From a virus, in the IMG/VR virus record IMGVR_UViG_3300013947_000004: a stretch of 64,000 nucleotides of DNA; one strand, 5' to 3'. The notes beneath the pieces were generated by a model that saw only the letters and a list, made by a program, of their open reading frames with translations, did no database searches and was not told where the DNA came from. Within the stretch, counting starts at the first letter, position 1. Each line of letters opens with the position of its first letter. Position numbers and translations under genes: made by a program. Positions 1,259 through 37,500 of this stretch are shown piece after piece.

Positions 1259-2105
1259 CGTTATTTTTAATTAAAATGGTAAAAAAATTAACATACGTGA
1301 GTGTACTAACTTCCCTAATTATCGCCGTGCCGTGCCAGTACCCGCAAATACGAAGCCCCACCCCCACAAAGGGGCGAATGATGGGGGGGGTAGGCAAGAA
1401 TGGCTTAACCATGCGGTTTATGGGCTGTTTATTTATGTATAGTGGCTACAAATGGCTTAGTTATGCGGTTGATGCAGTTTTTATGTGGTTTGATATACTG
1501 TAACCATCCCAAGCGGGACGGAAACGAAACGCAAAGGACGCCCACCGAGCTGGGTTGTAGGAATACAAGGTCGGCTCGACGCAATAGTAAAAAGAAAAAA
1601 AATAAAGCCCCAGCCGTGAGGCAAACGGGTTGTTCTTTGAGAACAGAATATGGTATCTTCCACCGGAAACGGTGGGAGTTGGCGACATAAAAAAGTTGCC
1701 GTGGTACCCGATGAAAACGGCTTAACCAAGCCGTTGGAGGGCTAAGCGTCAGATAGCCATGGTAGGCGGCGTGAGATTCGCGGTGTTGTTGCCTGAACTG
1801 GCTATTTAGTAGCCGGGAATGATAACGATTCTAATGGCATATTAAGTTGCATGCCTAGTGAGGGATTATCAATAATCAGAGGTACGTATGTATACTAGTC
1901 GTATCGAGGCTAAGGACCGGGAACGGTGCTTCTGGTTATGGTCGATGTGTCTAGGGTATGGGAGTAGCGGATAGATACTTCTTATACTCTATATACTGTA
2001 ACCAAAGGAACGGAATGTAAGTTTTTTCGCCCCGCTCGGAGTTGTGAAAAGACTTACATTTTAGACAAATAGATTGTCGTGCCGGGGGACGTTAAACACC
2101 GGCCC
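1224..2105 (+). ncRNA. Candidate large structured ncRNA (about 0.85 kb). Could be ROOL/GOLLD-class or unclassified.
   Basis: No credible ORF. G+C jumps from 13/60 at 1261-1320 to 35/60 at 1501-1560. Many stable hairpins, including a GAAA tetraloop at 1660-1675. Lies downstream of cassette A and upstream of the first RBS-bearing gene. Confidence 0.5.
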
Positions 2106-20984: not shown

Positions 20985-23900
20985 CTACATATAATTTTCT
21001 TCTAACCTTGACGTATCTTTATTGTACGTAAATTCAGCAATATTAGGGCCATACATCCCATCACGTGCCTTATCTATCTTAATCCGGGTCACATTCTCTA
21101 ACTGTTGCTTTTCTTCTAAAGATAAGTTAGGGTCTTTCCCCGGACGCCAAAGCAACATGATAATATCAGCTGATGCTTCCAAATCTCCGGTTAGTTTGAG
21201 TTGGGTCATATTTGGTTCCCCATATGGGTTCCCCCCACGGTTTAACTGAGATAACATAACAAAAATAATATTATTTTCTTTTGCTATTGCTTTCATTTTA
21301 GTAGCTGATGCAGATGCACCTTCAAAATCAGAAGTCCCTTTTAAATAGCCAAAATAATCGACAAAAACCATGTCAACGGGGGCACCCATTAAGTTTTTAG
21401 CATTAACTAACCGAATCCGTTTTTCAATATCATTTATAGTATAATTGTTGTTGTCAAAAATAAGCAGGTGATTTTGTAACTTTGATATAATGTTTTGAAC
21501 TTGAGTATCACTGCTTCTAATATACCCTTCTACTTCTGCCATTGAACATCCGATAAGTTTCGCTACACATCGTTCTATAAGTTTTCCTTTTGGCATTTCT
21601 AGTGAGAAAAATACAACCCTCATTTTATCTTGACAAATAGCACGAAGCATAGCTTCGATAGCGAAATCCGTATTATGAGTTACGATGTAATTATTGCATA
21701 GATATGTATGTTTTGGACTGTCAACAGTAATACACTGCATTTCTTTCTTTTCTTTTAGTTTTTCTATAGAAACAATAGCCATTTTACTCCTATCTACCCT
21801 ACGGGAAATATTCCGACGTTTATTCCATCTTTCAATATGCTTTTTACTAGAGAACCAAACGTCTGAAATTTTTTGTATTACCAAAGTGTATTCGGGGATA
21901 CTCGATTTACCTTTCCTTACATGATAATGCATTTCACATCTTACACCTAAAGAATTTAAAAGCGTGTTCAGCCCATCTATTAATCTTTTTGATTTGCTAG
22001 AGAATTGGGTAAAACCCCTGTCGTTAACACATCCGTCCGTGTCGATAAGGCCACGAACTAATTCTATGCGATTTTCTATAGAGTCGAACAAATATTCATC
22101 AGGAATAAATTTTTCGCAACTCTTTGCCCCGTGAAATGTTTCTCTGAGGTAATTAACAAAAGGATTATTTTTCCCTCCGCAAAAACACATTTGATTGGGT
22201 TGTCCTTTATGAAGGTGCCAATGGCCGAAACTAGCCGTTAAATAGGAAAGCTTCTCTTGAATGTCCACCTCTGGGTTGGTAAATGTGATTTGCCTTTGAG
22301 ATAATCCACCATCTCCCAACATAAGCCCTATGACATAAGGGGAAATAATGTGTTCTCTCTTTTTGTAATTAACTTCTGAGCAAACGGGTATATACAAATT
22401 CCACCCCTGTTGCCCTGCCGTTCCTCTTTTTAATTTATACTCAGACATAATATCCTTCAAGGGTTTAACAAGCCAAGATTTACCTTTCATTATGCGATTT
22501 TGAGTACTGAATTTCCATAAATGGTCTTCGCAACAATCAACATAACTACCATCCTTAAATGTTACTCGGTACACATCTTTTTCCCCTTGGGGAAACACAT
22601 GAGTAACTTTCGTTTCTTTTCCATCTTCATCAAAGACTATATCCCCAACTTTTATGTCCCCCATTTTAACAAACCCAAAGGGCGTTGCAATCAAAGAGTC
22701 TAAAGTTAGAGCTTTACCTACACCACTATAAGCTCCGATAACAACAACCTGCTTCTTTTCAACTCTACGGATGCAATTATCTATTTGTTCAAAATGGGTT
22801 TTAAAACCCCCGGTAGTGTATATCTGACGCAAGTCATTCAAACATTCGCCAATGTCTGACGCTTCTTTTAAAATATCGTCGGAATCCTGCCCAATAGTGT
22901 TAAAGTATTTCTTCAAATCTTCTGTATCTTTGTGCCATCTTTCAGCCAAGAATTTAATAATATCAAGCCGAATCATTTCAGAACGGACGGTTGGAAGGTA
23001 ATTTTCTGCTTTTTGATATTCTTCTTCTATGGTAGAACACCCCGCTAAGAGCAATCTCATGACGTACTTGTCGATATGCTCCGTTGGGAGAGTCTTAGGA
23101 TTAACCCCGGCAAGGAGGAGGTCATTCATGTCTTTAAATTCTTCTGGGACAATCCCTACCCGAACTTGCCTTCCACTATCAATAGAACGGAAGTAATCAC
23201 GGACTCTAGGTAAACGTTTTTTGCCCGGTTCGTCATTATCCGGGAATATAACAATAGACGTTTCCCTCCGTAAGTATCTACTCAAAGCCTTTATTTGGTC
23301 ACGATGTATTTCATTTGAGCAATAAGCAACCGTTGGGAGTCCCATTTGATAACCACTGATAGCGTCCATGTACCCTTCAACCACGTACACACTATCTTTG
23401 ATTAAACGTCTCGCCTTATCAAGCCCATACAGGAAAGAGGATTTGTCAAAGAGAATGTTGTTCCGGCTGTTAATGTATTTCGGCTTTCCGTCAAATCTAC
23501 GTACAGCAATCCCAACAGTTCTTCCGTTTGGGTCAATAAGAGGAATTGTGACCTTCCCTTCATACCCTCCGAGTTCGAACGTTTTGATTGTTTCGGCTGT
23601 AAAACCACGTTTTTCTGTAAGATATGAACGGACATCTTCTACCCCAGCTACCCCTTTCTGCTTTTTACTGTCCATTTTCGCTTCTAAAGCTTTTTCATTC
23701 TGGTAGGTAGCATCATCTACCAAGCTAATGTTAAGCATGTTAGCAAGCTTCTCAATAGCCATATTGTACGTAATGTGGTCATAGTCTGCCACAAAATTAA
23801 TGACATCGCCACTGGAATTGCACGAAAAACAATAGTACATTCCTTTGTTATCAACGAGCATCGACGTAGGATTACTTGAACCATGGATGGGGCAAGCACA

Positions 23901-24014
23901 TCTCCACCCATTACCACTTCTTGTTAATTCGATGTTCGCATATTCTTGAATAAATTGGGGAAAATCTATCTTCTGTCTGATAATATCTTTAATGTCCATT
24001 TCTAATTCCTCCAA
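20985..24014 (-). CDS. Primase / DnaB-like helicase fusion, interrupted by an intein.
   Basis: CHC2 zinc finger CPIHG..CFSC; TOPRIM motifs VVEGYMDA and FPDNDEPG. Walker A GVGK|T is split. Walker B MVFVDYFGYL. Confidence 0.85.
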   Translation of the reverse strand: MEELEMDIKDIIRQKIDFPQFIQEYANIELTRSGNGWRCACPIHGSSNPTSMLVDNKGMYYCFSCNSSGDVINFVADYDHITYNMAIEKLANMLNISLVDDATYQNEKALEAKMDSKKQKGVAGVEDVRSYLTEKRGFTAETIKTFELGGYEGKVTIPLIDPNGRTVGIAVRRFDGKPKYINSRNNILFDKSSFLYGLDKARRLIKDSVYVVEGYMDAISGYQMGLPTVAYCSNEIHRDQIKALSRYLRRETSIVIFPDNDEPGKKRLPRVRDYFRSIDSGRQVRVGIVPEEFKDMNDLLLAGVNPKTLPTEHIDKYVMRLLLAGCSTIEEEYQKAENYLPTVRSEMIRLDIIKFLAERWHKDTEDLKKYFNTIGQDSDDILKEASDIGECLNDLRQIYTTGGFKTHFEQIDNCIRRVEKKQVVVIGAYSGVGKALTLDSLIATPFGFVKMGDIKVGDIVFDEDGKETKVTHVFPQGEKDVYRVTFKDGSYVDCCEDHLWKFSTQNRIMKGKSWLVKPLKDIMSEYKLKRGTAGQQGWNLYIPVCSEVNYKKREHIISPYVIGLMLGDGGLSQRQITFTNPEVDIQEKLSYLTASFGHWHLHKGQPNQMCFCGGKNNPFVNYLRETFHGAKSCEKFIPDEYLFDSIENRIELVRGLIDTDGCVNDRGFTQFSSKSKRLIDGLNTLLNSLGVRCEMHYHVRKGKSSIPEYTLVIQKISDVWFSSKKHIERWNKRRNISRRVDRSKMAIVSIEKLKEKKEMQCITVDSPKHTYLCNNYIVTHNTDFAIEAMLRAICQDKMRVVFFSLEMPKGKLIERCVAKLIGCSMAEVEGYIRSSDTQVQNIISKLQNHLLIFDNNNYTINDIEKRIRLVNAKNLMGAPVDMVFVDYFGYLKGTSDFEGASASATKMKAIAKENNIIFVMLSQLNRGGNPYGEPNMTQLKLTGDLEASADIIMLLWRPGKDPNLSLEEKQQLENVTRIKIDKARDGMYGPNIAEFTYNKDTSRLEENYM
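21672..22712 (-). mobile_element. Class-3 intein (347 aa) with a LAGLIDADG endonuclease in the helicase P-loop.
   Basis: Ala435 to Asn781. Ala1 follows GVGK. Trp in block B (CEDHLW), Cys in block F (EMQCITV), Thr-His-Asn end (IVTHN|T). LAGLIDADG motifs YVIGLMLGDGG and LVRGLIDTDG. Confidence 0.8.
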
Positions 24015-24020
24015 AAATTG

Positions 24021-24142
24021 CTCTCAGAGCCGTTTTAAGGCTCTTTAATCTCTCGCAGGTCAAATTATACCTAGAATTGATGTTACCCCCAAAAAACATG
24101 CTCTGGAGGGCTGATTTTAACAAAAAACAGCATTTTGTGATT
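24021..24142 (-). promoter_or_regulatory. Promoter-plus-leader cassette, copy D (-10 at 24069-24064), driving the primase-helicase gene.
   Basis: Same ordered blocks as copies A, B and C. The 28 nt at its 5' end are identical to copy B. The ATG lies 50 nt downstream of the -10. Confidence 0.65.
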
Positions 24143-24357
24143 TATCCGCTGGGCGGTTTCTTCACTTTTCGTGGGAAAGGAATTAATTTTCCTTTGAGGT
24201 TCATCATTTTAGTAATTTCATCAACCATCTTTTCTTCTATGCCATTTAAAATTTCCAATTCCCATTCATTCGCTCCAGCTCTCTTTTTGTCAAGGCGGGA
24301 CTTTGCGTTAATGTACAATCCTAAGAGTGCTTGGTGGACTTTATAATCTGTGTTCAT
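24142..24357 (-). CDS. Hypothetical protein.
   Basis: ORF track. Confidence 0.45.
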   Translation of the reverse strand: MNTDYKVHQALLGLYINAKSRLDKKRAGANEWELEILNGIEEKMVDEITKMMNLKGKLIPFPRKVKKPPSG

Positions 24358-24370
24358 AATCTCGACCTCC

Positions 24371-24664
24371 TTATAACTCTAATAGCATGTCAACCGAATA
24401 CGGGATTTTGTTGCTTAACGGTTTCCTGACTTTATTCTTGTAGGAATCAATGTTCCTCCATACTGAGTTCCTATGGAACAATTCACTAAGAGGAGAACCA
24501 TATGGGAGAGGATGCTCTTTCATGTAATTTAACAACTCCGCCTGTTCTTCTTGTGGATGTTCCCCTATTTGTCTGGAGACCCTATCATAGTTTTGTTGAG
24601 ACCAGTGTCTCTGTCCCATCGTTTGGTCAAGAAACAGCTTAACCAAGGAATCCTGTATGTTCAT
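24371..24664 (-). CDS. Hypothetical protein.
   Basis: ORF track. Confidence 0.5.
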   Translation of the reverse strand: MNIQDSLVKLFLDQTMGQRHWSQQNYDRVSRQIGEHPQEEQAELLNYMKEHPLPYGSPLSELFHRNSVWRNIDSYKNKVRKPLSNKIPYSVDMLLEL

Positions 24665-24680: not shown

Positions 24681-25260
24681 TAATTAATTAATATCTACGC
24701 AGTACGTCATTCCTGCGTAGATACATCTTACTTAAATGCAAGCCGTGATAAATGCATTTGTTGGATTAAAACCTAACCAAGGAAAACATTAATTAAATAA
24801 TATCCATTGCCGAGGTAACTCGGCTTGGGATAACCCGAATGAACCGAAGGTGAATGAGGGTAGGGATTTTAAAAACTTAGCCAAGAAAAAAATTAAGTAA
24901 TTAATATCCCCCGCTCAAAGCTGGGGGATACTATTCTTTTAATTAATAAGGTACGTAGTACCTAATCCTAATTTCTTCCTTGGTTAATTAATTAAGTAAT
25001 ATCCCAAGCCAAGGTAACTTGGTAAGGGATATACCTTACGAATGAGCGAAGCGAATGAGTAAGGTTAGGATTAAATAAATAACTAAAAAAATAATTAATT
25101 AAATAATATCCATCACCGGGTTTAACCCGGTTTGGGATATACCGACCGAATGAACGAAGTGAATGAGGAAGGTTTTTCTTTACATTCTCTTTTCCCAATT
25201 CTCTTAAAAGATTCTTTTATAGGTTTCTTTTTTAAAGATTCTCTTTTAGTGCGTAATCCT
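24681..25260. repeat. Structured repeat array: putative replication origin or a tandem small-RNA array.
   Basis: Three ~80-nt units (24789-24865, 24985-25069, 25093-25172) with a covarying hairpin plus GAATGA sub-repeats. Three shorter hairpin units (24681-24730, 24892-24935, 24941-24965). Four ATTCT(C)TT iterons at 25183-25245. Confidence 0.6.
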
Positions 25261-25395
25261 TAATACCATTTGAAGCAGGTCGTTTTATACCAATTTTTAA
25301 AAATTAGTATATCTTTGCAAAAATTAATTCATATCAAAAGGTGGTTAAAGTTACGTTTTCTGTTATGTCTAGTGCGTAACTTTTTACACCACTTT

Positions 25396-25878
25396 TTAGT
25401 CAAGTACAGCGGCCGGAGAATCCGGTTCCTCTTGATAATAATCGTATCCCAGAGTGCAATATTTATTCGGAGGAAGAGTCCATTTTTTGTCTTGGTTTAT
25501 ATAGTACTGATAACTAACATTATTCCCGGTGTATATCTTCATCTTGCAAATAGCATTTGCGGCTATTAAATCGTCCAGAGCTTTCTTGATGGTCTTCTCC
25601 GCCATTCCTACCATCTTGGCTATATTCCCATTTCCATACAAACATACAGGCGTATCACCAAACCTATTTAGTGTTAAGAAATAAAAAACAACTTTTGCAG
25701 ACGTTGAAAGTCCAGAGTTGGTAACACGTCGCAACGAAGTTATACTTGGTTTGTATTTTACAAATGGGGCTTTCGTTGATATTAACCACTCGAATTTTTC
25801 CCCGTTATTGTATAACACCCATTTATCTAGCCATTTACTGTAATTGTATTTTTCGATTTTCATATGCATCTTCTCCAT
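25396..25878 (-). CDS. Putative replication initiator / replisome organiser (winged-helix).
   Basis: HTH-like NIAKMVGMAEKTIKKALDDLI. Located immediately upstream of the repeat array. Confidence 0.4.
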   Translation of the reverse strand: MEKMHMKIEKYNYSKWLDKWVLYNNGEKFEWLISTKAPFVKYKPSITSLRRVTNSGLSTSAKVVFYFLTLNRFGDTPVCLYGNGNIAKMVGMAEKTIKKALDDLIAANAICKMKIYTGNNVSYQYYINQDKKWTLPPNKYCTLGYDYYQEEPDSPAAVLD

Positions 25879-26120
25879 TTCTTATGCCCAACAAAAAACT
25901 TACTTTCTATAAGACTATTTTCCTCTAGTATTTTCAAAGCTCTAACAATAGTTCTTTCTGAGATAAAGTCAACTTCTTTGTGTATGTCATGTGCGGATAT
26001 TTGAATGAAGGGGTGACCTTCGAAAGACACCCCTCTATCTTCAATACCCTGTTTAATTGCAGCATAGACAATAGCACAATTAAGACCGACTCTTTTTGCT
26101 ATATTGATGTCTATCTCCAT
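25860..26120 (-). CDS. Small winged-helix DNA-binding protein.
   Basis: ISERTIVRALKILEENSLIE. Confidence 0.4.
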   Translation of the reverse strand: MEIDINIAKRVGLNCAIVYAAIKQGIEDRGVSFEGHPFIQISAHDIHKEVDFISERTIVRALKILEENSLIESKFFVGHKKWRRCI

Positions 26121-26129
26121 AATCTTCTC

Positions 26130-26870
26130 CTATGCTGGTTCGTCGTACATGTTCATTTGCTGGTCGGCAATCACTTTCGATGCGGCTTGTTTTATATCTT
26201 CCGAGAAATTAGAACGGTCAGCTACCCAGCTTAAATATCCCATATCCGTAACGGAACTTACTGGTTTCCCAGCATATTTACCTTTCGGGAAGATTACTTC
26301 TCCATTACTTGCCTGCGTAGCTGGTGTATCTTCTGAGCCATGATGTTGCTGTACTGGGGACTGAGATTCCTGTGTAACCCCTTCTGGCAATGCCCAAGAT
26401 GGAAGATTTGGTTTTTTGAAATTCCCCCACTGGTCAAGTTCGACCCAAATAGCTGGCAAGCTGTATAGATAACGACCAATTCCGAAAGCGGAACCTACAC
26501 GACGGAACGCTCCAGAGATACCTCCCTTGAACGGTTCAAAGTCTGTACAGTTTGCCCCGTCTGTTTTTTGTACTGTATACCCTTCGGGAAGATTAATTGT
26601 AAGAGTTGCCAAAAAACCTTTTACAGAAGTTACTTCTACTTCCCCTTTGTAGTTGGTACGCTTTTTATCACCAAAATCTACAGGGGTGTATTCTACAGAC
26701 CATTTATCTGCCCCCACAACTTCGTCTAATCGTTCCTGTACAGCACGGGCGGAGATGTATGCTAAAACTTCCCCCTTGCTTTTGTCTTTTGTTTTGCGCC
26801 CCACACGCCATTCCACATCTTCTGGCTTAAACGGAGCTTTCAATGCGTCGAACAATTCTTTGTTTGTCAT
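26130..26870 (-). CDS. Rad52/Sak-type single-strand annealing protein.
   Basis: AYISARAVQERLDEVVGADKW ... GGISGAFRRVGSAFGIGRYLY. Confidence 0.7.
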   Translation of the reverse strand: MTNKELFDALKAPFKPEDVEWRVGRKTKDKSKGEVLAYISARAVQERLDEVVGADKWSVEYTPVDFGDKKRTNYKGEVEVTSVKGFLATLTINLPEGYTVQKTDGANCTDFEPFKGGISGAFRRVGSAFGIGRYLYSLPAIWVELDQWGNFKKPNLPSWALPEGVTQESQSPVQQHHGSEDTPATQASNGEVIFPKGKYAGKPVSSVTDMGYLSWVADRSNFSEDIKQAASKVIADQQMNMYDEPA

Positions 26871-27214: not shown

Positions 27215-28327
27215 TTGGAGGACATGGGAAAACGGGGAAATGGAGAGGGAACCTTATACCAAAGGAAGGATGGTAGTTGGTGTTCGCAGGCTACAATAAA
27301 CAGACGCAGGATTACCGCTTACGGGAAGACAAAAACCGAAGCTAGGGCTAAATTACGCAAGAAAATAGAAGGTTTCATGGTTGGTGGTTCAATAAATAAG
27401 GCAAAAATAACAATCTCTAAAGGGATTCAAATATTTACAAAGGAACACAAAGAAACAAATGAAAGAACCTCTACTTCATACAGAGAGCGTCTAGATATAG
27501 TAAACAAATATTTGGGAGAGGAATTGCTAAATAACTTAGATACAGACATGGCGGAAAAGTTGGTGTCCGATATGATAGAGTTTGGGTATTCTAGGAATAC
27601 AATTAAGTTGGTTCTAACCCAAGTCAAGAAATTGTTTTACTTTGCAAAGAAAACTGGATACATTGAGAAGAATAGATATCTTGGAAAGATACGGATAAAT
27701 AAAAAGACACCGAAATTCATTCTTCCAAAACTTGAAGATGTTGTCCAAGTTATCCAAGAAATAAAATCGGTGCCACTGAAATATTTGGCTATGTTCGGTA
27801 TTTATACTGGTCTTCGTAGAGGAGAATTATGTGGTTTGCAATGGAAAGACATTTCAGAAGATGGTGTTATAACCGTGATGAGAGAATATGTCGGGTATAA
27901 GAGAAGTAATTGTGAATTAGCACCGCCTAAAAATGGGATTGTTGGTCAAAAAGTTCAATCCCCAGAAGAAGGAATTGAACTATTAAAAGAATTACAAGAA
28001 TATTATAAAGAGAAAAGAATAGAAAGCGAATTTGTATTCTGCAAAAAAGATGGCAGACCTCTTTTACCAAAAACAGTGTCCACCGAACTTGGCAGGAGGA
28101 TAAAAAAAATAGCCCCTCACGGGGCTGTCCATATTTTAAGACATTTAAATGCTACTTTCTTAGCGTCACGGAATATTCCAATTAGAACAATTTCTATGCA
28201 GTTAAGACATAGCAATGTTTCTATTACAGACAAATATATAAATGAATTGATTGGTGAAAACAGGGATGATATAAAAAATCTTTCATTGGGTTGCAGTAAG
28301 GTTGCAGTAACTAAGAAAGAACCCTAG
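27215..28327 (+). CDS. int: Tyrosine integrase.
   Basis: GLRRGELCGLQW and HILRHLNATFL...LRHSNVSITDKY (R..HxxR..Y). Extended -10 TGATATAAT at 27194-27202. An alternative ATG lies at 27224. Confidence 0.85.
   Translation: MEDMGKRGNGEGTLYQRKDGSWCSQATINRRRITAYGKTKTEARAKLRKKIEGFMVGGSINKAKITISKGIQIFTKEHKETNERTSTSYRERLDIVNKYLGEELLNNLDTDMAEKLVSDMIEFGYSRNTIKLVLTQVKKLFYFAKKTGYIEKNRYLGKIRINKKTPKFILPKLEDVVQVIQEIKSVPLKYLAMFGIYTGLRRGELCGLQWKDISEDGVITVMREYVGYKRSNCELAPPKNGIVGQKVQSPEEGIELLKELQEYYKEKRIESEFVFCKKDGRPLLPKTVSTELGRRIKKIAPHGAVHILRHLNATFLASRNIPIRTISMQLRHSNVSITDKYINELIGENRDDIKNLSLGCSKVAVTKKEP
28289..28310 (+). repeat. Tandem GGTTGCAGTAA x2 at the 3' end of int.
   Basis: Exact 11-bp tandem repeat. 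Confidence 0.8.
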
Positions 28328-28485
28328 CATTCATCAGCTATTACGGGCATAATGACATATCAAGACTGATAGGGATACATTCCCTCACAAGAATCTAGGA
28401 ATTAAGCCGTTTACCGGGTTTACACCGAATTTTCTTTAGCTTATTATACAACATAAACAACATGAAATACTAAGAATGATAGCTC

Positions 28486-28508
28486 GGTTGCAGTAGTTAT
28501 TGCAGTAG
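28486..28508 (+). repeat. Second pair of TTGCAGTAG boxes just upstream of the XRE promoter.
   Basis: GGTTGCAGTAG followed by TTATTGCAGTAG, in the same orientation as 28289-28310. Confidence 0.75.
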
Positions 28509-28511
28509 AGT

Positions 28512-28540
28512 TTGATTTATAAGAAATGCTATGATATTAT
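28512..28540 (+). promoter_or_regulatory. Sigma-A-type promoter of the XRE gene.
   Basis: TTGATT, 17 nt, TATTAT. Confidence 0.55.
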
Positions 28541-28561
28541 GTGTATAAGAGGTGATTCAAA

Positions 28562-28897
28562 ATGATTGACTCGGTGGGAAGGAGAATAGCGGAGTTAAGG
28601 GTTAAAAAAGGGATGACACAAAGGGATTTAGCAAACGCCACTGGGATTGGGCAGGCTCTTATTTCTAGATATGAAGCTGGGCATTACAAATCTTTGAGGC
28701 TAAGTACGGCTGTAAAATTAGCAAAGGCATTAGGAACAACCCCAGATTATTTACGCAGTCCTGACAGCAATCTGCCATATCCTTCCGAAGTATTAAATTG
28801 GTTAGCAGACGAAAAGAATTACTCAAAGGTTATGGAAATATACTATGAGGATATGACAAGAAGAATGAAAGAAAGAAATAAAAAAGAAGCCCCCTAA
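28562..28897 (+). CDS. XRE-family HTH regulator (candidate repressor).
   Basis: RIAELRVKKGMTQRDLANATGIGQALISRYEAG. Confidence 0.8.
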   Translation: MIDSVGRRIAELRVKKGMTQRDLANATGIGQALISRYEAGHYKSLRLSTAVKLAKALGTTPDYLRSPDSNLPYPSEVLNWLADEKNYSKVMEIYYEDMTRRMKERNKKEAP

Positions 28898-28912
28898 TCG
28901 GGGGCTTTTGTT
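28887..28912. terminator. Bidirectional terminator between the XRE and dnaE genes.
   Basis: AAGCCCCC-TAATC-GGGGGCTT flanked by A- and T-runs. Confidence 0.65.
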
Positions 28913-31900
28913 ATGCTTGCTTTGCTTCCATAAACTCAAATATTCTGTTGTTTTTTACTTTCATAATATAAACTTTGTGTTTTTCAAATTGTTTGTATTT
29001 GTCGTTGAAAATGACCAAGTCTTTTACATAATCGTTATCTCTAACTTTCACAAAAGCCATTGGTTTGCCAGTTTTGGTCTTTCTTGCTTTTACGTCTAGA
29101 ACTTCGTACCCAAAAATAGTTACATTATTCACTAAAGACATGTTGTAATTTTGAAAAATATTCCCAAAACTGACACCTAAAACCTTCGACTCTTCCTCTT
29201 GCTCGTTATACGAACCTTGTGTATATTTAAACAAACCTTTAGATTTTCTTTTATCTTTCGCCCATTCAATGAATTGTAACATTTCTTCACGATTTCCTTT
29301 AAAAACTCCAGCTTTTACTAAGTTTGACAAACAAGTTTTATTTACAGATATAAACCGTTCTATAAATTGCTTAAATTCAGTTGGGGCATCTTTAGGGAAC
29401 TCATTTTTCCCCACGCCTGCGATACAATTTAAACCAAGGGTGATTGTTGGGCCATCTTCGTCATAGTCCGAGAAACAATTCTTATGCTTGAGCGTCGGGG
29501 GGAGAATTTTAATTCCATCCTTCTTGGCTTCCATTACATATCCTGCTAGCTTCCCCTTGTCCTTACAGTTGGAGTCTATAACAGACGCCCAAAATGCGGC
29601 AGGGTAATGACATTTGAGGTACGCTGTAACCCAAGCTGTCATCCCATATGCGGCAGAGTGGGAATTACTAACAATAATCCCGTTATTCACAAGGACTGTA
29701 TGGTATGGATGTTCCATTTCTATATCATAAACGCTTTCCATTCCTATAAGTTTTATAGATACAATTTTATCTTCTTCTAGTTCGTATCCATTCCCGCCTT
29801 GTCTTGTTCTTCCCATTTTATAATGCTCCTTTTTATGACAGGAAGTACATAACCATTCTAAATTTTCTGGAGAATTATCTTTTCTATCCCCGTTTTTGTG
29901 GTGCATTTCAAATCTAGTTTCTCCATCGTAGGATTTACCGCATACAGCACAAGGGTACTGATTGTAAATTGCAACCTTTTTAGCTTCTTCGAATAAGTAC
30001 CAATTACTGTCCATTTTTTCTTGGAATCCCTTTTGTCCTTTTTTGGGAATATTATCTGAGATACATTCTCTGTTTGTGAGTCGGTAATCATGGCTAACCT
30101 TCACTCTATCCCCTTTTATATAGACGAGTTCTCCTACCTTTAAATCCTTTAACATTTTCTTACCTTTTCTTGTTGGGAATTTATGATTGGCCGTGCATTT
30201 TACATATTTCCCAGACTCTGTTCTTACTTCGTACACGTAGTTCTTCCCAGAATAAAAAATGTCAACAATTTTATTTCGTTTGATTTTCCCATCTATAATA
30301 GATAACCCATATCCGTAACCATATCTATTGTACTTTTCCCACAAACTGAGGTGCTTATTTTCTTTTGCCCACTTTTTATCTGTTTTTGTTTTATACATTT
30401 CTTCGAGAGTTAAGGGTTTCCTTTCATTTATATTCCTATACAGGGTTGTTTCTCCAGACAAGCAATGGTTAAATCCATAGGAGGCAAATGTGACTATGTT
30501 ATCCGTGAGGTCTTTCATTTGTTTTTCTGTATACCCTCTCTGGACACCTCTTTTAATCATATCTGCTATGACTGGTTGCATTTCATCTTTAACCTTTCTC
30601 CCTATGATACGTCGTAGATTGTCAGCTTCTCCGAGTGAGTATCCGCATATCTTTTGTGCAATCTGCATGATTTGTTCTTGGTACACGATAACCCCTTCTG
30701 TATCTTTTAAGATTGGTTCAAGGTCTGGAATATCGTATATAGTCGGCTCTTGATGATTTCTGCGACGGAGGAACGTTTCTGCCATTCCACTATCGAGAGG
30801 CCCCGGTCTGCCCAAGGCTACCACTGAGGACAAGTCCTCTACGTTCTTTATCCCCATCCTCAGAACTATTCCTGTCATAACATTTGATTCAATCTGGAAG
30901 CAACCTGCAGTGTTCCCCCGACGCAACATTTCTGCTGTATCTTTGTCATCAATGGGAATATTGGCTATATTTAAAGAATCAATTCCAGCTCTATGTTTTG
31001 TTTTTTCTATAATGTCAAGAGTTTCTAGCCCAAGTATATCAAGTTTTAATAAACCTTGAGCTTCTAGCTGATGAAAGTCATGGCACACAACCATATTATC
31101 TTTCTGTTTTTCAATAGCTGTCCAATTAGTAACATCTTCTGGGCATACAAGAACAGCCGATGCGTGGCAACCATAGGAGATTATGTGGCCTTTAAATTTG
31201 AGGGCAAGCTCTTTCCATTCTTTTTCCTCTTTGGTTTTGGCACCCATATCCTCTACATTAACTATGTTTTTGGATTTGGCTATACGGATTTTGGGTTCAA
31301 TTCCCAAAGCCTCTCCAGCTCTCTGTATTGCTGATTTATCTTGGATATAGTTAATAGTACGGGCTTGGTATACTTCCCCATATTTGCTCTTGATATATTC
31401 TATTAATTCTTGTCTTCTTGGTGTAGATACATCGGAATCGATGTCAGCTGGAGTTACACGTTCTGGATTAGCAAAACGTTCAAATACGAGATTGTATTTG
31501 ATTGGGTCGAGTTGCGTAATCCCCATTAGATAGGCTGTTAAACTCCCAACAACAGACCCCCTACCTAACCCCATAGGAATGCCGGATTCTCGGCAATGTT
31601 TTAACATGTCGTCAATAATGCAAAAATAGTTGAGGTAGTTTAGTTTATTTAATACGTCAAATTCATGCCGTACTTGCTTTATGTATTGGTTACTATTGGG
31701 AAGTTTAGAAATTCCCAGTCTCTTAAATCCCTCGTTACACCTCTTCTTTACGTAAGTTGCAGGGTCATCACAAAATACGGGGTAGTGTTGTCCCCCGAAC
31801 TCAATTTCCACATTACATTTATCAACAATTTCTTGCACATTTTCAAGAGCTTTAGTAATGTCCATGCTATTGCTTTTAAACCATTTCACAATATCTTCTT

Positions 31901-32558
31901 CACTTTGGAGATAATAGTCATCAGATACATAGTACTGAGAATCATCACCTAAACCTAGCCACATCTTATGTACTGGAATATCTTCCTTGTTCACATAGTG
32001 ACTGTCAAGAGTAACAATCGTCTTCCCTAAATTTTCCCATTTTTTATTGTACTCTAATTGCTCTGGAAAATTATGGGGCTGAATTTCTACATATAAATCA
32101 TCACCAAAAATAGATAATAGGCGGGAATACATTTCATCTGCGTTTTCTGCACTAAGTGGCCCAGCTACACACGCTGTTGTACATACCAAACCTTCGTGGT
32201 ACTGTTCCAGAGCTTCAAAACTAATTCTCGGCTTACGGTAGAAATGTTCATGGGCGTATGTGTCCAACTTCATCATATTTCTGTAGCCTTTAATATCTTT
32301 GGCTAAGATTACGAGATGGTACGTGTCACACCCATTTACCGTGATTTCAGAAGCTAAATAAAATTCACACCCCAAGATAGGTTTTACTCCTTGTTTTTTG
32401 CACTCTTGGTAAAAATCTATTATCCCTGTGCATGTCCCATGGTCGGTTATTGCTAAAGCCGGGTATCCAAGGTCTTTAGCTCTACCAACTAGGTCGGGAA
32501 TTGTACAAAATGCATCATGGAGGCTATAGTCCGTATGCTGATGTAAGTTAGAAAACAT
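28911..32558 (-). CDS. dnaE: DNA polymerase III alpha subunit (PHP plus polymerase core), interrupted by an intein.
   Basis: N-terminal PHP motif HQHTDYSLHDA. The YGFNH|SHSAAY motif is split by the insert. Confidence 0.85.
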   Translation of the reverse strand: MFSNLHQHTDYSLHDAFCTIPDLVGRAKDLGYPALAITDHGTCTGIIDFYQECKKQGVKPILGCEFYLASEITVNGCDTYHLVILAKDIKGYRNMMKLDTYAHEHFYRKPRISFEALEQYHEGLVCTTACVAGPLSAENADEMYSRLLSIFGDDLYVEIQPHNFPEQLEYNKKWENLGKTIVTLDSHYVNKEDIPVHKMWLGLGDDSQYYVSDDYYLQSEEDIVKWFKSNSMDITKALENVQEIVDKCNVEIEFGGQHYPVFCDDPATYVKKRCNEGFKRLGISKLPNSNQYIKQVRHEFDVLNKLNYLNYFCIIDDMLKHCRESGIPMGLGRGSVVGSLTAYLMGITQLDPIKYNLVFERFANPERVTPADIDSDVSTPRRQELIEYIKSKYGEVYQARTINYIQDKSAIQRAGEALGIEPKIRIAKSKNIVNVEDMGAKTKEEKEWKELALKFKGHIISYGCHASAVLVCPEDVTNWTAIEKQKDNMVVCHDFHQLEAQGLLKLDILGLETLDIIEKTKHRAGIDSLNIANIPIDDKDTAEMLRRGNTAGCFQIESNVMTGIVLRMGIKNVEDLSSVVALGRPGPLDSGMAETFLRRRNHQEPTIYDIPDLEPILKDTEGVIVYQEQIMQIAQKICGYSLGEADNLRRIIGRKVKDEMQPVIADMIKRGVQRGYTEKQMKDLTDNIVTFASYGFNHCLSGETTLYRNINERKPLTLEEMYKTKTDKKWAKENKHLSLWEKYNRYGYGYGLSIIDGKIKRNKIVDIFYSGKNYVYEVRTESGKYVKCTANHKFPTRKGKKMLKDLKVGELVYIKGDRVKVSHDYRLTNRECISDNIPKKGQKGFQEKMDSNWYLFEEAKKVAIYNQYPCAVCGKSYDGETRFEMHHKNGDRKDNSPENLEWLCTSCHKKEHYKMGRTRQGGNGYELEEDKIVSIKLIGMESVYDIEMEHPYHTVLVNNGIIVSNSHSAAYGMTAWVTAYLKCHYPAAFWASVIDSNCKDKGKLAGYVMEAKKDGIKILPPTLKHKNCFSDYDEDGPTITLGLNCIAGVGKNEFPKDAPTEFKQFIERFISVNKTCLSNLVKAGVFKGNREEMLQFIEWAKDKRKSKGLFKYTQGSYNEQEEESKVLGVSFGNIFQNYNMSLVNNVTIFGYEVLDVKARKTKTGKPMAFVKVRDNDYVKDLVIFNDKYKQFEKHKVYIMKVKNNRIFEFMEAKQA
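29664..30464 (-). mobile_element. Class-1 intein (267 aa) with an HNH endonuclease in DnaE.
   Basis: Cys699 (CLSGETT) to Asn965 (IIVSN|S). Block B CTANH. HNH motif HHKNGDRKDNSPENLEWLCTSCHKKEH. No penultimate His. Confidence 0.8.
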
Positions 32559-34595: not shown

Positions 34596-37500
34596 CTACT
34601 CACTAAATGCTTTAGCTGATTTAGCCAAACTCTGAAGTTCTTTATTGTTCTTCGGGATAGATTTCATCTTCATGTCTATGGAAGTCGTATCTTTTGTTTT
34701 TAGAACTTTCACAATTTGGGAATCTGTCATACCATAAATTTTAAGAGCATCGTAATTTTCCCCATTCGGGTTTTTTATATACTCTTGTTTAGCTTTAGCG
34801 ACTTCTGCTGTATACTTTTTCTTCATAACCCCTAAAACTTTATTGGCGTCAGCGGCGTTATTTTCGCTAACAGGTTTAAATCCTAAGAGCTTCATGAATC
34901 TGTCCGTTGCCGAATAATGGGAAACTGTATCCCCGTAGCTATTTTTGTAGTCCCCAGAAATGGCACTTTGGATTTGCCCTGCACGAGGAGCTATCTGTTT
35001 GAGGACTCCAGTGAATGCGGCAGGAACACTTTCCGCTCCCATAATAGCTTGACCAACACCTTTTGCTGTACTGTACGTCGGGCCTAAACTTGGAGTAAGG
35101 GCATCACCCATCCCGATACGAGAGGATAAGTTAACTCCCGCTAATGTGGGAGCTCCATACAGAGCTACGTTTACGAGTGCTTTCTTAGAAGCACTTCCCC
35201 CTGCCCAGTCAATCATAGCTTTTCGCATCATAAGCCCCGGGCTTGTCCCAGTAACAGAGTCGATGACATCATCAAATAAATCAGCCGCTGGTGCCCCTGT
35301 CGCCCCTGTAAGAATCAACATTGGAACGAGGAATTTCACATTCTCTTTCAATGTATTATTTCTCATAAAGTTGATTGTAAACAGAGGATATTTCTGGAAC
35401 TGTAAGAGTAGTTTACCAGTCTGCCCCGCCATAGCAAACGCCTGAGGGGAATTAACAGGGCTATAGTCAAAGTTCGTTTCTGTTACAGTTTTCTTCGCAT
35501 AATCCATTGCGTACTTTTCTTTTACATCTTCCATACTAATCTTTCCGTTAGATTTCTTTACAATGGATTTATAGAGAGCATCTTTTTTATCTTTTGGTAA
35601 CGCATCGAAGTTATCTTTGCCTTTTATATATGCTCCAATAGCCGTGGCTTTACGAGCAAAAATATCACCTTTGTTGAAGAAATACATGGACTTTTCTGCA
35701 ACATCTTCGAGGGAATGCCCACCGAGTACTTTCCGTTTCTTTTCAAATGCTCCCGGTGTATGTCCAATATCTTCAGCCTCTATTGCAATGCTTCTATCAT
35801 TAATCCCGACGTGCTTAAATAACTTGTCATACGTATCTTTCTTTCCTTGGAGCTTAATCCCTTGAAGCAGGTACTTTTCGCCAATTTTAGCGTTGGCATT
35901 CAAGAGCTGTGCCGCCTGCACAATCATAGCAGATGGGTTTGCCATACCTAGTTTTGTGTAGTTCTGTGTACGAATAACTTTTCTTGTAAGGTCAAAATAC
36001 GGGGTGTCTGTGTGATGGCGTCTAGCAAATCTCCCAATAGCCCCCGTCCTATTTTCTATCTTTCCAATAAAGTCTGTCATGACACTGTTAACAAGATTAT
36101 CAAAAGCAGAGACGGAACGAGGAGCTTCTATCGTCTTAATATATGTTTTCAAGAATTTCTGTTCGTTTGTAGCAGGAGGGTCGTTTACATCTCTTCCGTA
36201 CATTTCTTTGTAAGCCGCTGTTGCTTCCGCCTTAAACTTAGCTTTAGCTACATAGTTAGCCATTGTGCCAAGGTATCTCCATGTAGAGTCTTCGACATTT
36301 TTACTAAACCCATTCATCGTTTCGGGGTTATCTAACCGACCTTGGAAGTAGGGGTTAAACTTTGCTTTCATATTGGCATTGTTAATTAACATAGATAATT
36401 CATCTTTACTAATTGTTTCAGAGGTTCTTCTGCGTAGTTTATCTATAAGCTTGGTATTTTTCATTTGAGCTTTTACCATCTCTACAACTCGGTTATGAAT
36501 CGCATTCTTGGTATTTGAGTTCCATTTCTTCATAATCGTATTTGCTCTATCCATAACATCTTTGACGGGGATAACATCTTTATCTTTGAAGATTTTAGAC
36601 AACATAGCTCGCTTTAACTGATTGTTATATTCTCCTTCTGCAACATCATCGCTGTCTTTTAAATAACCTTCTTCTCTCAATTCTTCTATTTGCTTTGGGG
36701 TGAGCCGCTCTGAGCTATTAAGTTTTGTAGATAATGCGACTGTGTCCATGGGAGTCATTTTGAAAGATTTAGCTTTTATTTCTCCATCCTCTGCCCCCTT
36801 ATTAATATTCTGAACGTATTCTTCTGCGTCCAAAGCGTTGTAGAAAGAATTTGTTCTTACCCAGCTACCGTCGGAATCTTTTTCCATAACGACGTAGGGC
36901 AAGTGGACGTGTGGGAAATATCCATTACGTTTCTTAGGTAGTTTCGTAGCCGCACCTGCGTCTATTGCCGCACGGACAGAATCGTTATAAATATCGTCAA
37001 AGAATTTTTCATTCTTCGCAAATGCATTAATTACACTCTTGATATTTTCTGGTTTGTACGAGGAATCCCCGTATCTCCCGTCAATCTGGTTTAACATTCC
37101 AGTAACAGCCCGTGCATAATTTCGTTTAGCGAAACTGTTAGCGGACTCTTCGCTCCTGAATGCGGAACTCCCTTTGGAGAGGGCATATACAGTAAAGCCA
37201 CGGTTTCTTTCGGAGCCAGCATCTTCCAAAGAATCTCGGAGGGAGCCGACCATTTTATATTCCCCAGATTTTTTAAGCTCTGCTACTTTTTTAGCGGCTT
37301 CCACACTTGACTTGTAATGTTCTATGTACCCGTTATGGTCTAAGGCTAAGTATACATTGCCAATCTTCTGTACCTGCATAGGAGAACGACCCATTTTATC
37401 TGCGTGCAGAATAAGTCTATCTAATGCCGCTATCTGGGATTTGTTCAATCCTTTACGGATGTCAAGGTATTTCTGCGTATATTCTAATGTCTTGTCCCGA

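Follow-up and report, generated by a model that had tools for sequence, protein, structure and literature searches.

The 'per' origins of lactococcal phages are repeat-rich, non-coding origins of temperate phages that adjoin the gene of a winged-helix replisome organiser. In T4, oriF depends on an unwinding element, where the non-template strand is single-stranded (PMC3016281). Mini-hairpins of the GCGNAGC/GCGNNAGC type, which are far more stable as DNA than as RNA, are found at the G4 complementary-strand origin, at ssiA of RSF1010 (CCGAAGG) and in the hairpin promoters of N4 (PMC13037366). The PeSLs of T4-like phages are units made of a stem-loop, a promoter and a Shine-Dalgarno sequence, present also as degraded tandem copies (PMC4122927).

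We have analyzed a stretch of 64,000 nucleotides of viral DNA (the window from here on) belonging to a temperate phage, with an integrase gene and prophage copies among its relatives; no relatives at the DNA level were found among GenBank phages. About 500 non-coding bases (24681-25181) are occupied by a degenerate array of tandem units that recur every 95-109 nt, each of them joining an AT-rich box of 14 nt, AATTAANTAATATC, to a hairpin (Table 1). The box is found with 0-1 mismatch at 24682, 24791, 24895, 24990, 25097 and 25322, and a single other copy equally good exists in the 64 kb beyond 24.68-25.34 kb, at 22951. A single tandem repeat, of about 105 nt, has given the units as its copies; it includes a 5'-terminal piece of orf97, the next gene (TCCTTGGTTAAG). 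Read on the minus strand, ATATTAnTTAATTAA appears after every array hairpin, and its last copy is followed by the ribosome-binding site and the ATG of orf97, while the other copies have suffered a 25-nt deletion of exactly the ribosome-binding site and continue into orf97 codons. Only after unit A is there a Shine-Dalgarno sequence with a start codon (GAAAGGAAG-N6-ATG).

Table 1. Features of the array and its surroundings, in window coordinates.
Feature	Coordinates	Strand	Description
Primase-helicase	20985-24014		DnaG-type primase fused to DnaB-like helicase; 650 nt from the array
orf97	24371..24664	-	gene downstream of the array; first codons part of the repeat unit
Unit A	24682..24723	+	box 24682-24695, overlapped by an 11-bp hairpin, 24692-24702 / 24713-24723
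Unit 1	24789..24832	+	box 24791-24804 and hairpin 1 (24801-24832), TATCC / GCCGAG-GTAA-CTCGGC / GGATA
Unit 1 GA-zipper	24833..24861	+	ACCC-GAATGA-ACCGAAGGT-GAATGA-GGGT; cap CCGAAGG, 24844-24850; 38.3 bits
Unit B	24892..24940	+	box 24895-24908, GC-rich hairpin 24905-24930 (TATCCCCCGCT...GGGGGATA), T-rich tail
Unit C	24939..24963	+	short lead, then AGGTAC-GTA-GTACCT, a 6-bp hairpin with a plus-strand GNA triloop
Unit 2	24984..25032	+	box 24990-25003 and hairpin 1 (24999-25032), ATATCCC / GCCAAG-GTAA-CTTGGT / GGGATAT
Unit 2 GA-zipper	25033..25065	+	ACCTTAC-GAATGA-GCGAAGC-GAATGA-GTAAGGT; cap GCGAAGC, 25046-25052; 48.9 bits
Unit 3	25092..25140	+	box 25097-25110 and hairpin 1 (25106-25140), ATATCC / ACCGGGT-TTA-ACCCGGT / GGATAT
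Unit 3 GA-zipper	25141..25181	+	ACCGACC-GAATGA-ACGAAGT-GAATGA-GGAAGGT, then T-run TTTTTCTTT; cap ACGAAGT, 25154-25160; 45.2 bits
ATTCTYTT repeats, four	25184..25245	+	copies at 25184, 25198, 25211 and 25238; TRF period 14
16-bp inverted repeat	25340..25390	-	followed by TTTTGAT; contains one TAGTGCGTAA copy; read from the sequence
orf160	25396..25878	-	winged-helix DNA-binding protein, always found with the array

All the features listed in the original prediction, which had seen here either an origin or tandem small RNAs, are present where it placed them. Specifically, we have recovered the outer stems TATCC(C)/GGGATA, the inner stems that differ among units (GCCGAG/CTCGGC, (G)CCAAG/CTTGG(T) and ACCGGGT/ACCCGGT), the two GTAA loops and the short hairpins at 24692-24723, 24905-24930 and 24949-24963. 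The conserved motif that follows the long units had been taken for a tail. The motif is real (2 matches against 0.05 expected), but it is a second hairpin, the flanks of which pair (ACCC/GGGT, ACCTTAC/GTAAGGT and ACC..CC/GG..GGT). The four iterons and the duplicated TAGTGCGTAA (exact copies at 25247 and 25370) also exist as described; they are however kept in the closest relative only, so they are probably not core parts. The inverted repeat that contains the second of these copies is terminator-like and may be the end of the orf86-orf160 transcription unit.

The second hairpins follow the layout variable stem, GAATGA, R-CGAAG-Y, GAATGA, stem, and by their sequence both GAATGA strands are able to join each other in tandem sheared G.A pairs, forming a zipper capped by a GCGNAGC "DNA mini-hairpin". 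All three caps obey the heptamer rule (GCGNAGC / GCGNNAGC, Hirao), i.e. a closing pair, a C-G pair and a G-N-A loop with a sheared G.A pair. That of unit 2 is the canonical mini-hairpin, and that of unit 1 is the very heptamer given for RSF1010 ssiA (PMC13037366). The three copies are on the plus strand and no further one was detected in the 64 kb window. They belong to a very widespread and apparently undescribed class of "purine-zipper" (GA-zipper) hairpins, to which we return below.

The three long units folded better than dinucleotide shuffles both as DNA (z of -3.6, -5.3 and -1.5) and as RNA (-4.6, -6.7 and -2.9), these values coming from nearest-neighbour folding that has no special term for mini-hairpin loops. 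Every unit folded better on the plus strand than on the minus strand. Besides, the GA zippers, the GNA/GNNA loops and the G.T wobbles are exclusive to the plus strand, which supports a strand-specific single-stranded form, and the GA hairpins of a minus-strand RNA would lack the zipper. The plus strand is the template for all the flanking genes, i.e. the structured strand is antisense to them. It carries T-runs after two of the hairpins, that of unit B, which scored as terminator-like on this strand, and the last GA hairpin (unit 3).

The array was found after an orf160 homologue in 4 related (pro)phages, on the strand opposite to the genes in every case. Across these homologous arrays 94% of 322 cells were paired, and 9 stem pairs had compensatory two-sided changes versus 3.3 in shuffles, none of the 500 shuffles reaching 9; slid controls gave 0-1. 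These numbers support selection on structure, as originally suggested, and the outcome that was to speak against the original prediction, relatives devoid of conserved structure at this locus, did not occur. The hairpin of unit A has one compensatory change from G-C to A-T, in L302 and L299 hairpin 1 of unit 2 has kept its GTAA loop and shows three compensatory pairs, the outermost pair of the unit 2 GA-zipper goes from A-T to C-G in L302, and the closing pair of the unit 3 GA-zipper from C-G to T-A in L302 and L298. In the case of hairpin 1 of unit 1, a different hairpin sequence occupies the same place in the relatives, and the loop of unit C is inverted (TAC) in L302. The GA-zipper of unit 1 (in L302, L298 and L299) and hairpin 1 of unit 3 (in L302 and L298) are kept, the hairpin of unit B is invariant with a stronger T-run, and the T-run after the unit 3 GA-zipper is conserved in 4 of the 5 phages. 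The six boxes are conserved in the relatives, and the copy number of the units varies by deletions between boxes.

The array and orf160 form a cassette located between the recombinase gene and the primase-helicase gene that is inherited as one. L166, a more distant relative (DnaE 63% identical), has neither of them, and its orf86 and orf97 homologues are adjacent. The product of orf160 is a candidate to bind the AT-rich boxes. To call this gene "initiator-like" was overstated. It encodes a generic winged helix (PHROG E-values from 4e-5 to 1e-3, best Foldseek E-value 6e-3), and its fold matches include MarR/ArsR repressors and TubR/AspA centromere binders together with RepA-type initiator domains. 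A scan of IMG/VR with orf160 peptides gave no relatives. The phage is also rich in mobile elements, including two inteins.

Our preferred reading, to which we give a probability of roughly 0.4, is that the array would act in cis as a DNA element of the replication module, working single-stranded and being of the origin or single-strand-initiation type. The context favours a DNA-level origin or priming element over RNA because, in the replication module, the array goes together with the winged-helix gene, hairpins of this class appear also in plasmid oriT and oriV regions, the cap obeys the DNA mini-hairpin rule and the structured strand is antisense to all the flanking genes. Such an element might work as follows. 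The product of orf160, perhaps together with that of orf86, would bind the repeated boxes, and the AT-rich boxes would melt. The purine-rich plus strand would then snap into hairpins with GCGNAGC-type caps, zipped by the tandem sheared G.A pairs. Structures of this kind have been reported to have unusual stability in DNA form and to bind SSB poorly. Since the pyrimidine complement would be unable to fold, the region would be open asymmetrically, offering a naked minus strand and structured plus-strand landmarks to the phage primase-helicase. Plus-strand primers would be extended leftwards, co-directionally with the transcription of almost all the genes in the window.

Several observations stand against an origin. 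The cumulative GC skew has no inflection at 24-25 kb, although the skew here tracks the coding strand and is thus uninformative. The fold of orf160 is matched by repressors and centromere binders as well as by initiator domains, the boxes are spaced by about 105 nt, unlike classical iterons, and L166 replicates without the cassette. The conserved T-runs resemble intrinsic terminators of plus-strand RNAs, and the GA-zipper class is also present where no origin is expected (tRNA 3' ends, REP-like repeats), its bacterial copies having for the most part the same orientation as the gene upstream. We also looked for DnaA boxes in the TATCC/GGATA stems, and they match at best 6-7 of 9 positions, with the CACA half not conserved.

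When compared with the known systems, the ssi signals (the G4 complementary-strand origin and RSF1010 ssiA/ssiB, recognized by the RepB' primase) resemble the array in being strand-specific ssDNA hairpins with a C-GNA-G mini-hairpin cap that adjoin replication genes. However, the array stem is a tandem G.A zipper (GAATGA/GAATGA) and not Watson-Crick, its three copies are all on one strand while RSF1010 has one signal per strand, and the phage primase is of the DnaG type fused to a DnaB-like helicase rather than RepB'. As the repeat-rich origins of temperate phages, the array is AT-rich and non-coding, has direct and inverted repeats and is located in the replication module beside a winged-helix gene. 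It differs from them and from T4 oriF by the wide box spacing, the strand-asymmetric hairpins and the lack of an identified promoter. The MOBQ oriT regions (RSF1010, Ti-type) share GA-zipper variants near the nick motif, but the window has neither a relaxase gene nor a nick motif. As to the promoters of the N4 virion RNA polymerase, they are also template-strand DNA hairpins upstream of genes, with a three-base purine loop (GAA/GGA) and matching orientation, although they have 5-7 Watson-Crick pairs and conserved flanks and the array is internal to the replication module. We found no sequence evidence of an N4-type RNA polymerase, and a 2373-aa ORF of the virion module had no Pfam, PHROG or PDB sequence match and no detected RNA-polymerase domain.

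The conserved T-runs on the structured strand make plus-strand RNAs possible. In that case the array would encode tandem structured small RNAs antisense to the flanking operons, either regulatory or decoy RNAs or the primer or R-loop RNA of an origin, one ending at the unit B hairpin and its U-run and another at the last GA hairpin and its U-run. The RNA folding scores given above, with a minimum-free-energy structure that dominates the ensemble, the compensatory changes, which suit RNA as well as DNA, and the conserved GTAA loops, of GNRA type, all fit this possibility. So does the fact that elsewhere the motif immediately follows the 3' end of tRNA genes and has for the most part the orientation of the upstream gene. 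We nevertheless consider it unlikely. There is no sigma-70-like promoter in the array, and the box overlaps the foot of the hairpin, so that a -10 at TAATAT would begin the RNA inside the stem. The caps are GNA triloops, neither GNRA nor UNCG, and their RNA versions are much less stable (PMC13037366). Phage contigs mostly carry the GA strand on the side opposite to the genes that flank it (47 vs 18), and as a rule it is antisense to the neighbour on either side. Rfam gave no match either. Over the whole window only a tRNA reached the gathering threshold, between 24600 and 25450 nothing was better than E = 0.06, all far below threshold, and at the motif in 41 other loci there were none. A tRNA search at the array found nothing. 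Ribozymes, k-turns and sarcin-ricin mimics were discarded as well, the array element being a simple hairpin with a core that differs from their consensus sequences, and a CRISPR-like or type III antitoxin array would have exact repeats with unique spacers and a nuclease gene, which are missing here.

The array could also be read on the minus strand as PeSL-like composite cassettes in which the hairpin terminates and the next AT-rich box promotes transcription, empty or degraded copies having been stacked by recombinational slippage in a plastic region to control orf97, orf71 and the primase-helicase. With the PeSLs it shares the repeated stem-loop, the AT-rich box, the ribosome-binding site and the ATG, as well as the location in a region variable between relatives (the cassette is missing in L166) with a copy number that shifts by recombination between units. 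The arrangement of ATATTAnTTAATTAA and of the 25-nt deletions described above fits this reading, and in phage RB16 GA hairpins are found directly upstream of two 11/12 sigma-70 promoters. In the array, however, there is no -35/-10 match, the box is restricted to a single locus instead of being spread across many intergenic regions, the minus-strand U-tracts are interrupted, and it is not the strand of the genes that has the GA zippers, the GNA loops and the wobbles, the zipper being lost in a minus-strand RNA. This makes the cassette interpretation decidedly unlikely.

It is very unlikely that the boxes are just operators or centromere-like sites for orf160, as a regulator or DNA-organising protein, with hairpins that would be incidental or cruciform sites and no role in replication initiation. 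The constant association of orf160 and the array, the six conserved boxes and a fold that fits MarR/ArsR and TubR/AspA as well as Rep initiator domains would agree with this. Yet duplex operators need neither strand asymmetry nor covarying stems, a spacing of 105 nt is unusual for operators, and a phage that integrates, as this one does, has no evident need of a centromere. Finally, the array might be a selfish or neutral REP/MITE-like palindromic repeat that colonised a permissive intergenic site and grew by slippage without function for the phage. In favour of this, the GA-zipper core caps GTAG elements of the REP-like kind as well as small insertions at the 3' ends of tRNA genes, it forms the 50-nt terminal inverted repeats of L026, no neighbouring protein was shared among loci, and this phage is rich in mobile elements. 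We regard it nevertheless as highly improbable, given that the array has stayed at one locus and in one orientation in 5 phages despite the divergence of orf160 to 57% identity, that compensatory changes maintain its stems and that the 64 kb contain no further copy. The GTAG foot of REP/RAYT-type repeats, 5' of the palindrome, is missing as well.

If the array were an origin or priming site, a clade of gut-type temperate phages, one with no cultured relative in GenBank, would gain a cis element open to testing and, in orf160, a candidate protein to bind it. The array has also brought to light a compact class of hairpins that obeys a simple structural rule. Its members occur hundreds of times, in phages, in the oriT and oriV regions of plasmids, in REP-like repeats and in tRNA-linked inserts from both prokaryotic domains, and neither Rfam nor the searchable literature contains the class (exact-sequence searches retrieved only primer coincidences, and no paper matching the class was found). 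Were it given a name, a model and a function, origins and mobile-element ends could be annotated better, and 40 years of "mini-hairpin DNA" chemistry would be carried into a broad biological role.

The exact GA-zipper core was found at 55 viral and 108 bacterial or archaeal loci, with about 4 genome matches expected by chance (an estimate). The flanking stems covary, with 65, 49, 39, 45 and 51 Watson-Crick pairs at positions 2-6 versus 27-31 when shuffled, and the R-Y pair flanking CGAAG was G-C in 27 cases, A-U in 24 and G-U in 1; the G.T and A.C mismatches in ungapped flanks (51 vs 57) were uninformative. A scan designed in advance from the structural rule bore it out: the predicted alternative core GAGCGA was present at 120 viral loci at least, and the rule-breaking control GATAGA at none. 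Again following the GCGNAGC/GCGNNAGC rule, the non-ascertained copies had GAA, GTA or GGA triloops or a GAAA loop. The composite pattern GGGATA...GA-zipper gave no match in IMG/VR and a single unrelated one in metagenomes. No neighbouring protein was shared across 160 GA-zipper loci, with only ubiquitous families (ABC ATPase, SDR) appearing, by chance, and sigma-70-like promoters beside the motif had a weak excess (12 vs 4-6) pointing away from its 5' side.

We would tentatively consider, as a possibility, that the GA-zipper is a DNA module independent of proteins and asymmetric between strands (Y-GA-RY-GA-R on both strands with a C-GNA-G cap), an unnamed origin building block found across Bacteria, Archaea, plasmids and phages wherever DNA is opened or handled single-stranded, the phage array being a triple dose of it. 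The purine strand would fold on itself into an SSB-resistant hairpin and leave the pyrimidine complement naked, at replication origins and transfer origins as well as in REP-like elements and tRNA 3'-end inserts. Among plasmids, the GA-zipper of pAgK84 and of those from Pseudochrobactrum has traA on one side and the mobilisation genes on the other, at 10 nt from a nick motif like that of RSF1010, and in Selenomonas pSRC6 it adjoins the MobA/MobL gene. In the MOBQ oriT regions (pAgK84, pPB17_4, pSRC6) the variants are within 10-90 nt of the nick motif and the relaxase inverted repeat, and the relaxase-binding repeats have GAA or GCA triloops. The RSF1010 oriT sequence is found at 99% identity or more in 113 of 158 matching plasmids. 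Rep_3 plasmids of Staphylococcus carry the motif 300-525 nt upstream of the iterons and repB, and in L026 inverted copies surround three iterons and form its terminal repeats. In RB16 it is located in the uvsY upstream region, the equivalent of which in T4 is oriF (PMC3016281), and inverted pairs occur. The REP/RAYT architecture was seen in Zixibacteria-type loci only, and GA-zipper arrays elsewhere are plain tandem repeats. The zipper of pAgK84 has a T.T instead of the A-T pair (GATTGA).

The window comes from a tailed phage with genes for an SU10-type capsid protein, a portal protein and tail fibres, and a DNA search found no close relative among GenBank phages. The phage has an integrase and a cI-like HTH gene, the latter read from its translation and from an HTH_3 homologue in contig L302. 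All the genes around the hairpin array lie on the minus strand, the integrase excepted. Two of them, orf86 and orf160, overlap by 19 nt, each having a helix-turn-helix or winged-helix element, and match PHROG 'replication initiation / DnaD-like' profiles weakly (E-values 4e-6 to 1e-3). Elsewhere in the window, NrdD (anaerobic ribonucleotide reductase) is found as two ORFs 368 nt apart, which may be split by an intron or other insertion. A 2373-aa ORF of the virion module, adjoining a transglycosylase-domain protein gene, had no sequence match in Pfam, PHROG or PDB and may code for an ejection protein or other giant internal protein.

Positions of the features in the window and in the other DNA records compared with it
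Feature	Record	Position	Strand	Remark
DnaE-type polymerase	Window	28911-32558	minus	HNH intein
Integrase	Window	27215-28327	plus	
Erf/Rad52 annealing protein	Window	26130-26870	minus	
orf86	Window	25860-26120	minus	weak PHROG match
orf160	Window	25396-25878	minus	weak PHROG match
orf86/orf160 overlap	Window	25860-25878		
Gap holding the array	Window			730 nt, between orf160 and orf97
orf97	Window	24371-24664	minus	
orf71	Window	24142-24357	minus	
DnaG-type primase fused to DnaB-like helicase	Window	20985-24014	minus	LAGLIDADG intein
NrdD ORFs	Window	10917-11372, 11740-13134		
2373-aa ORF	Window	34596-41717		
Prophages beside host genes	L298; L299	1-3632; 1-3626		
GA-zipper variants beside nick motif	L294 (pAgK84); L295; L296	3001-3060; 3001-3060; 2500-2640		MOBQ oriT regions
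Hydrophobic ORF locus	L164 (NZ_CP068065)	1616-1930		S. equorum plasmid
Inverted-repeat element	L026	3919-4223		also L038, L045
Palindromic region	L291 (RB16, NC_014467)	1460-1700		
REP-like element	L056, L057, L124, L129, L137, L144, L149, L157			Zixibacteria, Ignavibacteria
tRNA inserts	L062, L064, L074, L075, L116, L130, L132, L147, L148, L152, L156	e.g. L064 265-460		
Tandem arrays by tRNA genes	L072; L125; L068; L141	1640-2030; 2190-2520;; 4807-5085		

The units, stems, loops and repeats named in the original prediction are all present at the positions given there, among them the four copies of ATTCTYTT and the two identical copies of TAGTGCGTAA. The 14-mer AATTAANTAATATC has six copies with at most one mismatch (24682-25335), and its sole copy of equal quality outside the array in the 64 kb is at 22951. 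The repeat unit includes a piece of the 5' end of orf97. The three long units fold far more stably than shuffles, and whether modelled as DNA or RNA, the plus strand folds better than the minus. The GAATGA motif that follows each of them had been read as a tail, but it is a second hairpin, with complementary flanks: ACCC/GGGT in unit 1, ACCTTAC/GTAAGGT in unit 2 and, in unit 3, a stem that is interrupted. The facing GAATGA hexamers are predicted to pair as G.A, A.G, A-T, T-A, G.A, A.G. The apex is R-C-GAA-G-Y, i.e. the 'mini-hairpin DNA' of Hirao; unit 2 has the exact cap GCGAAGC, and unit 1 has CCGAAGG. We call this combination of flank stem, GAATGA zipper and mini-hairpin cap the GA-zipper hairpin. 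It is strand-specific because the complementary strand (TCATTC...) cannot zip. In the window, a covariance model of the class found the three array copies and no others.

In the IMG/VR relatives reached by way of Erf, the genes for DnaE, Erf and primase-helicase are tightly packed and there is no array. In the closest, L166 (DnaE 63% identical), the homologues of orf86 and orf97 are adjacent, indicating that orf160 and the array are an insertion relative to this contig. L166 lacks orf160 and has a longer orf86 homologue, of 124 aa. Searching with the orf160 protein gave six relatives (57-83% identity), in contigs L298, L299/L300, L301 and L302, with the common order integrase, Erf, orf86, orf160, a gap of 612-730 nt, orf97, orf71 and primase-helicase. 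According to the class model, all of these gaps contain GA hairpins, and the hairpins never share the strand of the genes. L302 has three, L298 and L299 have two apiece, and the incomplete L301 has at least one. The alignment of the arrays shows conserved boxes, GA cores and hairpin positions and a conserved GTAA loop, and 94% of 322 cells in it are paired; the number of units varies by deletions between boxes, and conservation is absent to the right of unit 3. Selection on structure had been proposed before, and the covariation analysis on homologous arrays bears it out: there were nine two-sided pair changes versus 3.3 in shuffles, none of 500 shuffles reached nine and slid controls gave 0-1. 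Among the compensatory changes, a G-C pair became A-T in unit A, unit 2 shows CC/GG replaced by TA/TA and A-T by G-C, and in unit 3 the closing pair went from C-G to T-A. Taken together, the hairpins of the array are conserved, strand-specific and under selection for structure; the array is linked to a winged-helix gene within the replication module and contains three members of the GA-zipper class.

Two of the contigs with orf160 relatives are prophages beside host glucose-6-phosphate isomerase and epimerase genes, which are directly next to the integrase. This junction predicts the window phage's attachment site in the 28328-28910 region, with the integrase on one side and the cI-like HTH gene or DnaE on the other. 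The primase-helicases of L166-L169 and L298-L302 are intein-free (about 657-661 aa), versus the intein-bearing one in the window.

The neighbour gene had also been described as initiator-like. A DNA-binding role of orf160 is supported by its AlphaFold model, of moderate quality (pLDDT 62), in which residues 45-140 form a winged helix, but an initiator is not established. Its Foldseek matches are weak and generic (best E = 6e-3), to N-terminal domains of RepA-type initiators (5kbj, 4pt7) and equally to MarR/ArsR repressors and TubR/AspA centromere binders.

The GA-zipper class is a more interesting result than the window array itself. A scan for exact matches to the 20-nt core gave 55 viral contigs, among which one T4-like clade is over-represented, and 108 bacterial and archaeal genome stretches, where we estimate ~4 by chance. 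The hosts include Patescibacteria, Bacteroidota, Alphaproteobacteria, Zixibacteria, Staphylococcus plasmids, Halobacteria, Thermoplasmata and DPANN archaea. The flanks vary in sequence by locus and keep their pairing: at flank positions 2-6, 65, 49, 39, 45 and 51 of 112 unique instances were Watson-Crick, against 27-31 with shuffled partners. The R-Y pair flanking CGAAG was G-C in 27 cases, A-U in 24 and G-U in one, and the two central zipper pairs covary (AT/AT, GC/GC, AC/GT and GT/AC, including phage phCDa). We reason that tandem sheared G.A pairs require a 5' pyrimidine and a 3' purine on both strands, so that GAAUGA or GAGCGA are the sole options for two G.A blocks two pairs apart. The class follows this predictive rule: a pattern scan found the GAGCGA version at 120 viral loci at least, while the matching scan with GATAGA, a control of equal base composition that breaks the rule, gave no viral loci. 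In copies not chosen by the search pattern, the caps are GAA, GTA or GGA triloops, or GAAA, and they obey the GCGNAGC/GCGNNAGC rule. No Rfam family was found at the motif in the window or at 41 other loci, no description in the literature by exact-sequence and keyword searches, and no protein family common to the neighbourhoods. The class appears to be undescribed.

In plasmids, the class is found at transfer and vegetative origins. The traA relaxase and mobilisation genes of pAgK84 and Pseudochrobactrum plasmids are divergent, and a variant of the hairpin is located between them. At a distance of 10 nt is an RSF1010-like nick motif, and the relaxase inverted repeat of this motif carries a GCA triloop. 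In Selenomonas pSRC6 the MobA/MobL gene is 25 nt away from the variant, and an inverted repeat plus TAAGTGCAC is about 90 nt away. The zipper strand is opposite to the nick motif in pAgK84 and the same in pSRC6. The oriT repeat of RSF1010 has the cap C-GAA-G. In Staphylococcus Rep_3 plasmids the GA-zipper is 300-525 nt upstream of four 22-bp iterons and repB, a vegetative origin. An S. equorum plasmid codes for a 40-aa hydrophobic ORF with its own terminator; the GA-zipper region and a long terminator-like hairpin follow directly downstream. The ORF may belong to a type I toxin-antitoxin system, or to a small-RNA locus, beside the replication origin.

Among phages, the T4-like myophage L026 carries an element between its tail-tube and major-capsid genes in which two inverted copies, as terminal repeats of 50 nt, enclose three iterons (GCATAATAGATACCAATAGATTAATCCTA). 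Each repeat consists of a GA hairpin and a GTAA-loop hairpin, a layout that is origin-like or MITE-like. In RB16, inverted pairs of GA-type hairpins flank a 100-nt AT-rich centre in a palindromic region between uvsY and gene 24, just upstream of uvsY, all lying between two outward-facing 11/12 sigma-70 promoters. Its position matches that of T4 oriF, which consists of a promoter and an unwinding element and where the non-template strand stays single-stranded (PMC3016281). An N4-like phage has a GA-zipper in the divergent region ahead of exonuclease and primase genes.

We tentatively favour, with a probability of roughly 0.4, that the array acts as DNA, as an origin or priming-signal element whose purine strand would fold and hold the region open for the primase-helicase; we rate it as a variant of the repeat-rich phage origin region using mini-hairpin DNA. 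Arguing for single-stranded DNA are the cap rule, which is that of DNA mini-hairpins, the presence of the class in oriT and oriV contexts, and the antisense position of the array to all its neighbours in five phages. DNA mini-hairpins are reported to be far more stable than the RNA versions, poorly bound by SSB, and present at the G4 priming site, RSF1010 ssiA and the N4 hairpin promoters (PMC13037366). Plus-strand small RNAs are unlikely, although plus-strand T-runs are conserved after unit B and after the last GA hairpin, the GTAA loops are GNRA-type, and at other loci the motif often shares the strand of the upstream gene or lies immediately 3' of tRNAs. A promoter search of the array found none, which speaks against them and for the single-stranded DNA reading. 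Both could be combined, as the R-loop of an origin transcript would displace exactly the folding strand. We give somewhat less credit still to terminator-promoter cassettes similar to the PeSL composites (stem-loop, promoter and Shine-Dalgarno) of T4-like phages. An operator or centromere-like array, in line with the repressor and centromere-binder folds matched by orf160, is improbable, and we put a functionless selfish repeat equally low.

Orientation of the class was counted on naively called ORFs. For GAGCGA in phage contigs, the GA strand was opposite the upstream gene in 47 and the same in 18, with both neighbours opposite in 23 and both on the same strand in 9. In bacterial loci the GAATGA version mostly shares its strand with the upstream gene (44 vs 19; 35 vs 20 in a second count).

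In cellular genomes the GA-zipper caps REP-like GTAG palindromes. The multi-copy element of Zixibacteria and Ignavibacteria MAGs, GTAG-GTCGGGTT-CC-[GA zipper]-G-AAACCCGAC-A, matches the architecture of E. coli REP (GTAG plus palindrome) but differs in its GA-zipper apex. At Patescibacteria tRNA genes, the GA-zipper heads 170-190-nt inserts at the 3' end. In Patescibacteria/Saccharibacteria the insert starts right after the discriminator base. The GA-zipper is followed by a second hairpin, then by sequence complementary to the T-arm and acceptor 3' strand of the tRNA, a segment rich in CGAG, and finally a direct repeat of the 3' end of the tRNA. Its predicted fold is Y-shaped, Rfam gave no match, and it looks like a miniature integrative element or a tRNA-linked RNA. 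Plain tandem arrays of two-hairpin units, with one GA-zipper hairpin each, also adjoin tRNA genes (5 x 71 nt in Sediminibacterium, a 66-nt unit in an uncultured archaeon and 3 x 129 nt in another MAG).
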